A DNA stretch of 64,000 nt from a phage, in sequence record PQ724394.1. One strand, 5' to 3'. Below the pieces are notes generated by a model. That model was not told where the DNA came from. It ran no database searches and worked only from the letters and a program-made list of their open reading frames with translations. Of the stretch, positions 45,705-58,232 are shown piece after piece (position 1 is the first letter of the stretch; the number at the start of each line of letters is the position of its first letter). The position numbers and the translations under genes are program-made.

Positions 45705-46064
45705 TTAAAGATGGTCAAGTGCTGGGTTGTGAGGTTTTTCTGCTTTAGTAGTGTTTTTGTGCCAATCTGATTTAGAGACACGAATTGCATCAGCGCCATA
45801 AGAACTCTTAAGGATGCCTTTTTTATTGTACACACTTACTGAAGTAAGAGAATCACCGTTCCAAGTAGCATGGACGAAGTTGGATTTAGATTTAAGCTCT
45901 TTAGCCAGGCTCTGATTAGTAGCCATAGAAGCAAAATCTTTACCCGTAACTTTAAAGACTTCAGACGGGTTCAGGCCTTCTTTAGCCTTAGCCAACTGTT
46001 CAGGCGACATACCTTCATTAATGCGTTGGGTAGATTCTGTAATAAATTCTTGATAAGTTTTCAT
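45705..46064 (-). CDS. internal-protein-like head protein with capsid targeting leader
   Basis: N-terminus MKTYQEFITE|S matches the T4 internal-protein leader with prohead-protease site after Glu10. Confidence 0.55.
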   Translation of the reverse strand: MKTYQEFITESTQRINEGMSPEQLAKAKEGLNPSEVFKVTGKDFASMATNQSLAKELKSKSNFVHATWNGDSLTSVSVYNKKGILKSSYGADAIRVSKSDWHKNTTKAEKPHNPALDHL

Positions 46065-46106
46065 ATTATTCCTTAAGTTGATAGAAGTATTCTATCACGG
46101 ATTTAA

Positions 46107-46523
46107 TTAAGCGTAAATAGCCTTGCCATAGTGTTTGTACCAGGTAGGACGTTGTGCAATTTTTTCATCCAAACGGGCTTGTGAAATAGCGATAGAAGCT
46201 TCGTGAGGAACATAATCACCACGGAATTCCTGAGGAATATCACTAATGTCCTGGACTGTAGTATCCTTGATATTAAAGCCACGTTTTAAACATTCAGCTA
46301 TAAGCTCAATTTGACGCTTACGTAAAAATTCAAGCTTATCATAAAAGAATGTAACATGGCCCGTACCAAGTATAAAAGTAGGGCTGATTTTAAAATCACG
46401 AACACGTTTACCGTTAGCAACATGCTTACGAACCGCACCGAAAACACGTGGTAATTCACGGTATTCAGCCATTAAGTGTTGGTCAGCCAATTCAGATACT
46501 AAGGTAAGGTTGATACGAGTCAT
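46107..46523 (-). CDS. denV: endonuclease V (pyrimidine-dimer DNA glycosylase)
   Basis: 138 aa; essentially identical to T4 DenV as recalled ([29 protein letters not shown]). Confidence 0.95.
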
Positions 46524-46548
46524 TTTAATCTCCTGTAGTTGATAGGTC

Positions 46549-46578
46549 TATAGTATCATGCCTACTGGAGATGTAAAC
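46549..46578 (-). promoter_or_regulatory. early promoter cassette
   Basis: Full conserved motif copy upstream of denV. Confidence 0.65.
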
Positions 46579-46583
46579 TGCTT

Positions 46584-47072
46584 TTATCTATAAGCGGCCC
46601 AAGTACCTGTTTTAAAGGCGGCGATAACACGCTTGGCACGATTCGGGGTTTGCTTGTACCAACGAGACTGCGCCAGGTTAACTGCGGCGTCATCCCAACG
46701 TTTCTGTTGGAGCATACGCAGAGAGTTGGTAAACCCCGCTACACCAGCTTCACCCATTTGGAAGACCATATTAATCAATGCACAACGACGAACTTCGTCC
46801 AGCACATCATAAACTGGTTTCAATTTAGGATTACGCATTATAGCTCTACGAGCATTTTCCACTGAACGATTAAAGAGTTGTTCAGCTTCAGCCATAGTAA
46901 TACGACCATTACAAACTCGACCCATAAGCTTATCAAGTTCAGCGCGAGCAACATCTTTAGATGGGTTCTTGGTAACTAACTGGCCTATACCAATAGTCCA
47001 ATAACCTTCAGTGTCTTTATAAAGATTTAAATCAAGACCTTCGTCTTGACGTAACATATCAAAAATATCCAT
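46584..47072 (-). CDS. e: lysozyme (endolysin)
   Basis: 162 aa; matches T4 lysozyme ([16 protein letters not shown], catalytic Glu/Asp/Thr context). Confidence 0.95.
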
Positions 47073-47095
47073 AATTACCTCCTGATTATAGGAGG

Positions 47096-47103
47096 TATTT
47101 ATA
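47096..47103 (-). promoter_or_regulatory. late promoter (TATAAATA) for lysozyme gene e
   Basis: Exact TATAAATA immediately upstream of a CCTCC...GGAGG hairpin that contains the e Shine-Dalgarno. Confidence 0.65.
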
Positions 47104-47550
47104 TCAAAAGAGTGAATCTAAAACCTTAAACATCGACTGGCCCATGACGTATTCCCATTGCGGACGTTTAATCAAAGCGAAAGCGTCGAATTCTGGAATC
47201 GTACGACCATCAGGGAACGTATGGTAAGCCGTACATTTGCAATTCTTGAACTGCTCGTGTTCGACAGGCACAGTATATAAGAACAGGTGTAGATTCTTAT
47301 TGCTTGAATATTTGAACTCACCTAGGTCTTTCAGGAACGCAGGGTCGTATGCCGTGAATCCAATCTCTTCTTCGGTTTCACGCATTGCTGCTTGAATAGG
47401 CTCTTCGCCTGGTTCGACATGACCTTTAGGAATGTCCCATTTATGACGCATGTTCTCTGGATTACGAGAGCCTGTTACACGACCCATAACCAATTCTTTA
47501 TCGGCGGTCATGAACAAAATACCTGCGGATAATTCTTTAACTTTACTCAT
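47104..47550 (-). CDS. nudE: Nudix hydrolase
   Basis: Nudix box [23 protein letters not shown]; start at [10 protein letters not shown]. Confidence 0.8.
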
Positions 47551-47779
47551 CGTCTCGTTTCCATGATTGTTCAAAAATATCTCGTATAATAATTTCAACA
47601 CACGTTTCTGTTGACGGACTTTCACTATCAGATATTTGGACCATATAATCAGAAATAGGTCGGAACAAATCCAAGTCGCTTTCTAAATCTTCTTTGATTT
47701 TCTCTTCTGATGTTCCAGTGTCATAGGAATACAGATACGAATCGCATGACTCGGATTTAATATAAATCGCAATACTCAT
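47543..47779 (-). CDS. hypothetical acidic protein (78 aa)
   Basis: ORF. Confidence 0.4.
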   Translation of the reverse strand: MSIAIYIKSESCDSYLYSYDTGTSEEKIKEDLESDLDLFRPISDYMVQISDSESPSTETCVEIIIRDIFEQSWKRDDE

Positions 47780-48363
47780 TTACGGCATTCCTCAATAAAA
47801 GAGTTTAATGTATTTTTCTTAGTGATATCGTCATACACCTTTTTAACTTTAGAAATACGAAAAGGTACTTCAACAACTGCAGTCCATAAAAATGATGCGA
47901 TAAGTCCTAAGATAGCCGCAGACATCGCTGAAGCAAATAGCGTAATAGGCAGGTCATTATCCGTTGTCAGGAAAAACCCTAGGAGTGGGAAAAATAATAT
48001 CCCCATCCAAACATAGAACCTAGAACTCACTAATTTGTCGTATTCATCACTCCATGTACGAAAGCCGTATTTTTTGCTATAACAAATCAATGGGTCTGGT
48101 GTCTGTTCTTTATGGGGTTCCGGTTGCCAACCATTTACGATATATCCCATTTTATATTCCTCAATTAAAAGTTGTTTCATTTCAGCAGTACAACCTGACC
48201 AATCTATTGTACTGGCTGAAATTCCTTCATCGCCATCATCAATATTTCGCCAGGACTTTTTAATAATCATATTCTCACCACTTGGGATAATGATTCCGGC
48301 ATTTTCTGACCGACGGATGAAGTTTACATCAACACCCATGCATCCGGGTTCATAAAGGGCCAT
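47776..48363 (-). CDS. hypothetical membrane protein (195 aa)
   Basis: Two C-terminal TM helices; C-terminal FIEECRK motif. Confidence 0.45.
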   Translation of the reverse strand: MALYEPGCMGVDVNFIRRSENAGIIIPSGENMIIKKSWRNIDDGDEGISASTIDWSGCTAEMKQLLIEEYKMGYIVNGWQPEPHKEQTPDPLICYSKKYGFRTWSDEYDKLVSSRFYVWMGILFFPLLGFFLTTDNDLPITLFASAMSAAILGLIASFLWTAVVEVPFRISKVKKVYDDITKKNTLNSFIEECRK

Positions 48364-56715: not shown

Positions 56716-56783
56716 TTAATTCTATTATGAAAGGCTCTTTGAGGGAAGAACCTTTGGTAATAGAGGGTATTAATGATAGAGTA

Positions 56784-56810
56784 ATAATATCACATAATTC
56801 TTAAAGCATA
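56784..56810 (-). promoter_or_regulatory. MotA-type promoter candidate upstream of tRNA cluster
   Basis: TATGCTTTA box, 12-nt spacer, TATTAT; oriented toward the tRNA genes. Confidence 0.35.
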
Positions 56811-57085
56811 TTAATGTAATCAAGTTTAATAGAAGCAATCTTCAAAGGATTTTTAAAGATGTCGTATTCGACCAACCCATTTTCATTTGCCGTATAAAAA
56901 GTAAAGTTAACAGAATTATAGCGTTGGCTGTTAACTTTGAGTTTAACATCGCTTGAACTACGGCCAATATTAACCTGTTGAACATCAAGCACAGCATCTT
57001 TGCCGTAATTTCGAATCAACAACTCAGCTGCAACCTGATCGGATTTATAGCCATTCTCTGGATTAGTAACCTTAACGTATAACAT
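56801..57085 (-). CDS. hypothetical protein (94 aa)
   Basis: ORF. Confidence 0.4.
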   Translation of the reverse strand: MLYVKVTNPENGYKSDQVAAELLIRNYGKDAVLDVQQVNIGRSSSDVKLKVNSQRYNSVNFTFYTANENGLVEYDIFKNPLKIASIKLDYINML

Positions 57086-57490
57086 TTAACCCTCGTCTAC
57101 AATAGTGTGGGTATTGGCATTAACAATCTGCCACCAGCCAAAACGATTAGAACCGTAAAGAGGCTTATTCTCGTTTTCTTTAATGATATCGCGCAGTTCA
57201 TCTTCAGAGAAGGCTTTAGCGATTAAATCAGTATACCCACCGCGTGGATAATAATTATCACCCGCAAACAAAAGGAAATTTACCTTTCCGGAAGGAACAT
57301 ATGCTTCCTTAGGATACTTGTTTCCTGCATGGTCTACCACTTCAATATAACGGTAAGGAATATCAGTACTTTCAACCCATTGCCATGCTGCAGCAGGGGA
57401 TTCAAAAGCATCTACACCTAAACGATTATCTTCATCTTTAGACGGATTATTTTCGTAATCCGCATATACATAATATTCAATGTTCATCAT
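57086..57490 (-). CDS. hypothetical protein (134 aa)
   Basis: ORF. Confidence 0.45.
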   Translation of the reverse strand: MMNIEYYVYADYENNPSKDEDNRLGVDAFESPAAAWQWVESTDIPYRYIEVVDHAGNKYPKEAYVPSGKVNFLLFAGDNYYPRGGYTDLIAKAFSEDELRDIIKENENKPLYGSNRFGWWQIVNANTHTIVDEG

Positions 57491-57672
57491 TCACCTTTAG
57501 AGATTTTATCCATAACGAAAGAGATTGAACCAATTAAGAATGCCACTACTAAAGAGATTGTATTCTCGGAAGTTGTAAGCAAATCCAACATGAATCCTGC
57601 AAACATACTAAAGCCAAAAGCAGTAACGGCGGCCAGTGCAGTAACATTTCTAATTAATTCACAACGTTTCAT
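57487..57672 (-). CDS. hypothetical membrane protein (61 aa)
   Basis: ATG at 57672; early promoter cassette upstream. Confidence 0.4.
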   Translation of the reverse strand: MKRCELIRNVTALAAVTAFGFSMFAGFMLDLLTTSENTISLVVAFLIGSISFVMDKISKGE

Positions 57673-57707
57673 TTTATTCTCCAATCACTCATTTGTTTTG
57701 ATAGGTC

Positions 57708-57737
57708 TATAGTATCATGCCTATAGACCTTGTAAAC
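57708..57737 (-). promoter_or_regulatory. early promoter cassette
   Basis: Conserved motif copy upstream of 57487-57672. Confidence 0.6.
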
Positions 57738-57749
57738 ATCTTTTTTAAA

Positions 57750-58004
57750 TTATTTTAGGTCTTCTAGACGTTTCTTCATCTTAGAGCCATTCTTAGCAAT
57801 TTCGCCAGCGTCTGAACATAGAGCCAAAAGGGCTTTAACTTTAGTCTGGTCACCTTTAAAGGAACTCGGGTCAACAGAATCAGCAAGTTCTTTAATACGC
57901 GCGAACAAACGTTCGGCTTCAGCTAAAGCAGTACCAAGTTTTACTTCCATACCGTGTGAGGATTCGGTTAGAGGTTGCGCAGAAAATTCTTGATAAGTTT
58001 TCAT
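57750..58004 (-). CDS. internal-protein-like protein with capsid targeting leader
   Basis: N-terminus MKTYQEFSAQPLTE|S. Confidence 0.5.
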   Translation of the reverse strand: MKTYQEFSAQPLTESSHGMEVKLGTALAEAERLFARIKELADSVDPSSFKGDQTKVKALLALCSDAGEIAKNGSKMKKRLEDLK

Positions 58005-58022
58005 TTTGTTCCTTAGTTTAAA

Positions 58023-58232
58023 TTATTTTAGCCATGAAGAATTTTCAGAGACCCAGCTATCTATATCTGATTGAGGCCCAAAGAAGTAGGCAACCCCATT
58101 AGATAACTCTCCTGAAAGCCAATTTATACCTTTCAGGCTTTCTTTAAATTCTTCAGGAGTACAAGAAACCTCTATTGCCACCGAAGAGGCTGACTCCATT
58201 GCTTCTGTTAAGAATTCTTTGTATGATTTCAC
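58023..58232 (-). CDS. internal-protein-like protein with leader variant
   Basis: N-terminus [10 protein letters not shown]|A. Confidence 0.45.

Follow-up and report, generated by a model that had tools for sequence, protein, structure and literature searches.

Do the small open reading frames (ORFs) of a T4-related phage that begin with almost the same ten or so residues, and continue with unrelated ones, encode proteins that travel inside the head with the DNA? The question is raised by a 64,000-nucleotide stretch of phage sequence record PQ724394.1 (the window), in which a first-pass annotation made from the sequence alone had noticed four internal-protein-like genes, here called ORFs A to D, at three loci. 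The window comes from a Dhakavirus: JS98/JS10-like phages of that genus match the region at 88-96% identity, and unannotated contigs named "phage Ec2-ASingh" match ORFs A and C at 100%. The analysis given here indicates that A to D are very probably four genes for T4-type internal proteins (IPs), i.e. proteins that would be packaged into the head, cleaved there, ejected with the DNA and, most likely, active against restriction. Leader-bearing internal proteins have been known as a phenomenon since 1994, and the four genes are an ordinary, long-known feature of the T-even phages, with nothing new in principle; what is modestly new concerns the locus of B, the constancy of D and the junctions at which such genes are exchanged.

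All four ORFs lie on the minus strand: ORF A at 45705..46064 (119 residues, leader MKTYQEFITE|S, the bar marking the predicted cleavage site; mature part 109 residues, isoelectric point (pI) 9.5), ORF B at 54864..55481 (205 residues, leader MKTYNEFLNE|S; mature part 195 residues, pI 9.66, charge +11.6), ORF C at 57750..58004 (84 residues, a 14-residue leader MKTYQEFSAQPLTE|S; mature part 70 residues, pI 8.8) and ORF D at 58023..58232 (69 residues, a 10-residue leader then |A; mature part 59 residues, acidic with pI 4.1). The frames, leaders and translations are present as first described; two points had been absent from that description, namely the strand, the plus-strand translations of the same intervals being riddled with stops, and the start codon of ORF D, which is GTG. 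In the window K[ST]YxEF occurs at exactly the four ORF starts and at one site outside any ORF, 12252 (plus strand), and the chance expectation for MK[ST]YxEF is 0.005 per shuffled window. When all start codons were scanned with the looser pattern M..[YFW].[EDQ]F, A to D were returned together with two look-alikes that lack the cleavage motif, with 0.37 expected. The look-alikes, a 301-residue ORF beginning MKNYLDF... at 32839-33744 (minus strand) and a 128-residue ORF beginning MMKFNDF... at 39990-40376 (minus strand), have no [L/I]-x-E site near the leader-like start and were rejected as internal proteins; they are probably unrelated.

Beyond the leader the four proteins are unrelated in sequence, as had been proposed: BLASTP matches among A to D and to T4 IPI, IPII and IPIII are confined to the leader, and the lack of similarity to the mature T4 proteins is a difference from them. 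The window as a whole has no ipI, ipII or ipIII, the BLASTP and tblastn matches to these being leader-driven and limited to residues 1-38. Scans of the four proteins with Pfam and NCBIfam gave no match above threshold; in particular none matches Pfam IPI_T4 (PF11634), which T4 IPI itself matches at E 7e-54. The protein reported as rich in Ala, Pro and Lys is that of ORF B, where these residues make up 32 of the 40 positions (80%) from 74 to 113. In the features of T4 internal proteins that can be examined in silico, the four genes are indeed internal-protein-like as far as their sequences can tell.

The leader itself carries much of the argument. A shared T4 leader of about 10 residues, as stated in the first-pass annotation, holds for IPII and IPIII, both MKTYQEFIAE|A, whereas that of IPI, MKTFKEFTSTTTPVSTITE|A, has 19 residues. 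The leader of ORF A, MKTYQEFITE against MKTYQEFIAE in IPII and IPIII, has the same [L/I]-x-E motif before Ala or Ser. In the work of Mullaney and Black (1996), summarised in PMC9026906, residues 4 and 7 were found to serve mainly targeting and residues 8 and 10 processing. ORFs A, B and D have Tyr4, Phe7, Ile or Leu at 8 and Glu10, followed by Ser or Ala; ORF C has Tyr4 and Phe7 with a four-residue insertion ahead of Leu-Thr-Glu|Ser, an arrangement that recalls the longer IPI leader. The predicted cleavage sites are thus ITE|S (A), LNE|S (B), LTE|S (C) and LTE|A (D), and that of C is supported by the fact that its homology with Ip5 begins at the P1' Ser. A set of 53 leaders (34 unique) was collected from eight genomes and from divergent members of the families. 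Phe7 is present in all 34 unique leaders and residue 4 is aromatic (Tyr or Phe) in all 34, with Glu6 in 32 and Glu10 in 29; Thr3 is encoded by all four of its codons, and Tyr4, Phe7 and Ile8 each by both synonymous codons. Because synonymous codons vary beside an invariant Phe7 and an aromatic residue 4, the leader is evidently selected as a peptide and not only as DNA. The ORF B leader takes the forms MKTYNEFLNE, MYTFNEFLAE, MLNFKEFITE and MLKFKEF..SE across genera, with positions 4, 7, 8 and 10 kept.

The gene order is that of T4: gene 1, 57A, 57B, D, C, trna.4-trna.2, the tRNAs for Met, Asn and Arg, orf184, B, e.8, e.6, nudE, e, denV, A, vs.8. The three loci first noted are therefore those downstream of denV (A), between the tRNA cluster and e.8 (B) and downstream of 57B (C and D). 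ORFs A, C and D lie in recognised Ip loci, the e-denV-vs.8 block and the 57B-trna.4 block; A is on the denV side of what in T4 is the e-ipIII-ipII-denV block, and C and D follow 57B as ipI does. The syntenic region from vs.8 to gene 1 was surveyed in the window, JS10, JS98, MN04, AnYang, VR5, ABTNLS3 and T4. It holds 41 leader-bearing ORFs of 13 families, three to eight per genome and always at the same three loci; JS98, one of the phages first suggested for comparison, is among the eight. The families include IPIII, IPII and IPI together with the named Ip5, Ip7, Ip8 and Ip9, and they evidently appear and vanish between close relatives, as is known for IP genes. Small size, mostly basic mature parts and a presence that varies between relatives are shared with the T4 proteins. 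In MN04 there is no denV, and the order is e, ipIII, an Ip7-type gene, vs.8.

The window is the sole genome of the eight without IPIII. Its e-denV spacer (46524..46583, minus strand), the slot of ipIII and of ipII or orf132 in T4, JS10 and JS98, is empty apart from an early-type promoter at 46550-46577, and the block that JS10 carries between e and denV and the window does not is 1103 bp long with ipIII and orf132. The missing ipIII was considered as a notable trait and the idea was dropped: e and denV are adjacent in at least nine other records, IPIII occurs in just 261 phage records, and T2 and T6 lack it (PMC12373910). The absence of ipIII is ordinary.

Internal proteins would have to be made late in infection, at the time of prohead assembly. 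Among the four ORFs only B has a late promoter of its own, a perfect T4-type TATAAATA at 55510..55517 (minus strand), 36 nt upstream of its start. The nearest one able to read through e and denV into A is the TATAAATA upstream of e at 47096..47103 (minus strand), 1039 nt upstream of A; no perfect late promoter stands closer than about 3.5 kb upstream of C and D. In T4 the corresponding distances are 603 nt for ipIII and 1300 nt for ipII, both from the promoter equivalent to that of e in the window, and 1134 nt for ipI, which has in addition an early-type promoter at 60 nt. Since the proven IP genes of T4 are no closer to their late promoters, the distant late promoters of A, C and D are not evidence against packaging.

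The Ip5 name reportedly goes back to Repoila et al. in 1994, and members are annotated in phages ACG-C40 and VR25. ORF C is evidently this known T6-type Ip5: it matches the Ip5 family phrog_3499 ("internal head protein") over its full length at E 4e-45, it is 86% identical to the Ip5 of ACG-C40, in the same post-57B position and with mature parts that begin identically at SSHGMEV, and it is 55% identical to that of VR25. It differs from the ACG-C40 protein in its leader, MKTYQEFSAQPLTE against MKTFKEFATKTTITE, i.e. an IPII/IPIII-type start on an Ip5 body, and the VR25 member differs in locus, lying in the e-denV interval, so that one family occupies both places. ORF A belongs to phrog_3966 (E 6e-26, "unknown function"), a family of 91 phage records every one of which is annotated as hypothetical. 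Two other matches of A were set aside: that to PDB 9hnh_A (E 4e-4) involves a short helical motif found three times in an apparently designed repeat protein and was judged to be chance, and an identity with Ip10 was rejected since the match is restricted to the leader.

ORF B (phrog_2280) is a self-contained late unit. Directly ahead of its promoter stands the terminator of orf184, a GC-rich hairpin and T-run at 55525..55546 (minus strand; -14.5 kcal/mol, z -2.3), it has a Shine-Dalgarno sequence, and directly 3' of its stop is a terminator-like 10-bp hairpin at 54839..54862 (minus strand; -14.1 kcal/mol, z -2.4), after which comes the e.8 early promoter. The hairpin and late promoter form a direct repeat of about 90 nt (55457-55546 and 56085-56169) that stands ahead of both B and orf184. 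The latter gene (55552-56106, minus strand) has its own TATAAATA at 56140 within the repeat, two adjacent late units thus sharing a duplicated regulatory element; its product begins with a hydrophobic stretch, and the JS98 record notes a similarity to RB43 ORF080w. JS10 retains the hairpin and lacks the late promoter, B and e.8, 1086 bp in all. JS98 (Dhakavirus), p000v (Mosigvirus) and PG7 (Karamvirus) all have B at the same place, with the tRNA cluster on one side and e.8 on the other. The family is a narrow one: it comprises 139 phage records, every one "hypothetical", and a set of 1.84e9 proteins holds only 12 cluster representatives of it. An AlphaFold2 model of B (predicted local distance difference test, pLDDT, 72.6 overall and 83-91 in the domains) shows helical domains at 22-71 and 119-204 with a predicted disordered linker, 74-110, between the two; a Foldseek search with it found its own family alone in BFVD and nothing in PDB (best E 2.3). 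Family B thus appears to occupy a third locus, conserved and served by its own late promoter, in addition to the "two Ip loci" of the literature; this is the first of the modestly new points.

Several other explanations of these genes were weighed, two of which turn on ORF D. The frame could be suspected of being no gene at all, i.e. an accidental reading frame of the spacer between 57B and C whose first residues happen to resemble a leader, from its GTG start and from its absence from the annotation of the JS98, JS10, IME08 and UP19 records, but this is most improbable. The match of D to phrog_23867 spans the whole length (E 2e-42), its GTG overlaps the 57B stop (GTGA) with a GAGGA Shine-Dalgarno sequence ahead of it, and D is 97-99% conserved in Dhakaviruses. 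Homologues in Kagamiyamavirus, Winklervirus and Moonvirus, 53-77% identical, start with ATG and keep the leader, with 21-23 synonymous against 19-31 non-synonymous codon differences over 70 codons; the AlphaFold2 model is confident (pLDDT 81.7), a compact beta-alpha-beta-beta-alpha fold. In the RefSeq records of JS98 and JS10 an annotation "gap" of about 650 nt follows 57B (stretches 20501-21083 and 16978-17561, respectively), and it contains two unannotated leader-bearing ORFs, D (69 residues, GTG) and one of 97 residues beginning MKTYQEFIKE|S. D is therefore evidently a real gene, a constant, acidic and mostly unannotated member at the 57B junction, which is the second modestly new point. 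That the common N-terminus is kept as a nucleotide element, for translation initiation or as a recombination patch, so that some of the proteins, with D as the obvious candidate, would be common cytoplasmic products of early or late infection and never packaged, is a different matter and an unlikely one. The Shine-Dalgarno sequence and the first 21 nt are in fact conserved as DNA and coincide with cassette junctions, translation of D is coupled to that of 57B, a non-head gene, D has no late promoter nearby, and its charge is atypical for an internal protein. Nevertheless the synonymous variation around Phe7 and the aromatic residue 4 shows selection on the peptide, and in B- and D-family members of other genera the DNA and several residues have changed while positions 4, 7, 8 and 10 are kept. 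In Citrobacter phage CF1, moreover, the D homologue has an annotated IP gene on either side of it, the three forming a single overlapping array, and T4 ipI, which likewise follows 57B and has an early-type promoter but no late promoter close by, encodes a protein proven to be packaged.

The remaining alternative accepts packaging and disputes function: B, and perhaps A, could be mainly structural or DNA-handling proteins, basic and rich in lysine, that neutralise charge or assist core or head assembly as proposed for T4 IPIII. This is doubtful, although it has more than one observation in its favour. The mature B protein (195 residues, pI 9.66, +11.6) closely resembles mature T4 IPIII (183 residues, pI 9.65, +10), its predicted disordered linker is 80% Ala, Pro and Lys, and its fixed position and two-domain architecture, conserved in at least three genera, are unlike the patchy families of an arms race; T4 IPIII mutants show slower head assembly and a smaller burst, and contacts between lysines of IPs and the phosphates of DNA have been described (PMC9026906, PMC3012670). 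The lack of ipIII in the window would fit with such a role for B, but that lack is common (only 261 phage records carry ipIII, and T2 and T6 do not). B is dispensable, being absent from JS10, VR5 and ABTNLS3, and IPIII is a specific GmrSD inhibitor whatever its role in assembly (PMC12373910), so that the two roles are not exclusive. The narrower proposal that B is a direct substitute for IPIII, for which the match in size and charge is striking, was rejected as such because B and IPIII occur together in JS98, MN04 and AnYang; it is kept within the minority structural alternative. At the other extreme is a more specific conjecture, to which little probability is given: B would be an unrecognised internal protein that defines a third locus in Dhaka-, Mosig-, Karam- and related viruses under its own late promoter and is directed at a defence against arabinosylated-cytosine DNA rather than the glucosylated hydroxymethylcytosine (hmC) of T4, and D would be a second such effector, different and possibly DNA-mimic-like.

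On the preferred reading, that all four are packaged and ejected internal proteins, the path of each product can be outlined after that of the T4 proteins. The N-terminal capsid targeting sequence of the precursor would attach it to the scaffolding core while the prohead is being assembled; gp21, the prohead protease, would then cut after the Glu of [L/I]-x-Glu, so that the mature chains begin at Ser11 in A and B, at Ser15 in C and at Ala11 in D; and the freed mature proteins would stay in the head beside the DNA and accompany it into the cell. Once inside, and before phage genes are expressed, they would most likely act as stoichiometric inhibitors of defences that recognise sugar-modified cytosines, with GmrSD-family type IV restriction enzymes as the leading candidate targets. 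By analogy with T4 the most likely role of A to D is thus the immediate protection of hypermodified DNA from modification-dependent nucleases. T4 Ip1, Ip2 and Ip3 have each been found to inhibit one distinct GmrSD-type type IV enzyme (Silas et al. 2025, PMC12373910), and the same work counts at least 10 Ips known by their leader, in two Ip loci. The first-pass suggestion of proteins tuned to defences against the phage's DNA modification agrees with this precedent.

The DNA to be protected probably differs from that of T4. Beside the DNA polymerase gene the window has a cytosine-modification cluster of RB69/Dhakavirus type at 10311-14515 (minus strand), with a thymidylate-synthase-like gene-42 homologue (11201-11899), a 567-residue protein with NTP_transferase (nucleotidyltransferase) and phosphotransferase/kinase-like domains (12812-14515) and, near the syntenic place of T4 beta-gt, a pair of ORFs that match nothing in Pfam (10311-11204 and 11896-12432), all on the minus strand. 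The cluster resembles the arabinosylation region of RB69 and the Dhakaviruses, which according to a 2026 paper are predicted to make arabinosylated 5-hydroxycytosine (PMC13326640). The phage of the window is accordingly predicted to carry arabinosylated, not glucosylated, cytosine derivatives, a difference from T4.

A number of observations weigh against reading A to D as four packaged anti-restriction proteins. A literature search found no virion proteomics report for these families, and the gene for gp21 lies outside the window. B is outside the two recognised Ip loci, in the interval between the tRNA cluster and e.8, and the leader of its family drifts at position 2 in other genera (MYTF.., MLNF..); D is acidic at pI 4.1, where the classical IPs are basic; and the fold models of B and D gave no informative clue and resemble neither IPI* nor any known inhibitor. 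As to targets, tests of ip4-10, the Ip5 family of C among them, revealed no GmrSD enzyme that was reproducibly inhibited (PMC12373910), and an anti-type-IV role is for this reason an extrapolation from 3 of 13 or more families. For D a parallel among named proteins may be the T6-type Ip6, which is likewise small and found after 57B: it can be aligned with the last 40 residues of D (GPxxxIxxWxxENxS; BLASTP E 1e-4, hhalign E 0.0015), but with an hhalign probability of 17% and an identity of 24-26% homology is unproven.

The repertoire of such genes would be one of shuffled cassettes, exchanged, gained and lost by recombination in the Shine-Dalgarno/leader segment and in repeated promoter and terminator elements. 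Among 18 IP genes the mean pairwise nucleotide identity is 87% over +1..+21 (codons 1-7) and 33% over +31..+45, just after the cleavage site, and the strongly conserved DNA, i.e. the Shine-Dalgarno sequence and the first 21 nt, is where cassette junctions are found. ORF A and the Ip7-type gene 0110 in the same slot of JS10 have an identical 40-nt upstream region and leaders that differ by 1 nt, the similarity ending exactly after the Glu codon of the cleavage site. ORF C and the Ip5 genes of Tequatrovirus show the converse pattern, in which leaders differ and mature parts are shared from the P1' Ser. Cassette swaps have their junctions at the leader or at the flanking promoter and terminator elements, and the unusual cleanness of those at the leader is the third modestly new point.

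The flanking elements are repeated as well. An early-promoter element TTTACA-N16/17-TAYWAT, in many cases followed by AGACCTATCAAC and a Shine-Dalgarno sequence, is present 18 times in the whole window, always on the minus strand; examples are at 573, 7282, 35509, 44244, 46577, 54803 and 57736. One copy stands directly 3' of each of e, B and C. At the e/denV junction the alignments of the window to JS10 on the two sides overlap by 13 nt (46567-46579) inside this element. The copy in the B/e.8 interval at 54776..54803 (minus strand; TTTACA-N16-TACTAT then AGACCTATCAA) is the 3' border of the B cassette, and at that directly downstream of ORF C, 57709..57736 (minus strand), homology to JS10 resumes. 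A sigma-70 promoter scan of the region gave no overall excess (45 against 39.6 expected from shuffles), and only the specific phage early-promoter consensus was informative. PeSL elements have been proposed to mediate modular shuffling in T4-like phages (Arbiol 2010; Comeau 2014, PMC4122927), and the arrangement here is similar, with repeated early promoters that match the published PST/T4 consensus, stem-loops, and indel junctions within them. It differs from PeSL cassettes in that the B cassette is headed by a stem-loop and a late promoter, doubled as the repeat of about 90 nt, and in that the leader coding sequence serves as a junction too.

Other features of the same region may be recorded. 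Between 51162 and 52424 (minus strand) are five tandem small paralogous ORFs of 65-96 residues (51162-51386, 51396-51626, 51636-51833, 51843-52124 and 52134-52424); four of the five end in W-[VF]-[SN]-S-S-x-x-Cys, and the first has an internal WLNSSC and the end ...WYPSSC. The tRNAs confirmed by the Rfam tRNA model are those for Arg, Asn and Met only; ARAGORN reports in addition a 97-nt "tRNA-Phe" with anticodon AAA at 56219-56315 (minus strand), where no Rfam tRNA match was found at E<=0.01. This position lies within a non-coding stretch of about 370 nt (56107-56480) at the place of the T4 stable RNAs rnaC and rnaD.

The mechanistic footing of the internal proteins dates from 2025 (PMC12373910), and targets have been identified for 3 of at least 13 leader-bearing families, all of them GmrSD enzymes. 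The present genes supply a compact and well-delimited candidate list for the JS98/CLB_P2-like Dhakaviruses, a group of phages used in therapy trials, namely Ip5 and three families that the databases call hypothetical or miss, the widely conserved late cassette B among them. The leader rule, i.e. an aromatic residue 4, Phe7, and [L/I]-x-E before a small residue, covers 41 genes in eight genomes, many of them "hypothetical" or uncalled, and would be a simple improvement in annotation. Injected proteins act before phage transcription and would decide, in the first seconds within a wild host, whether the hypermodified DNA survives.

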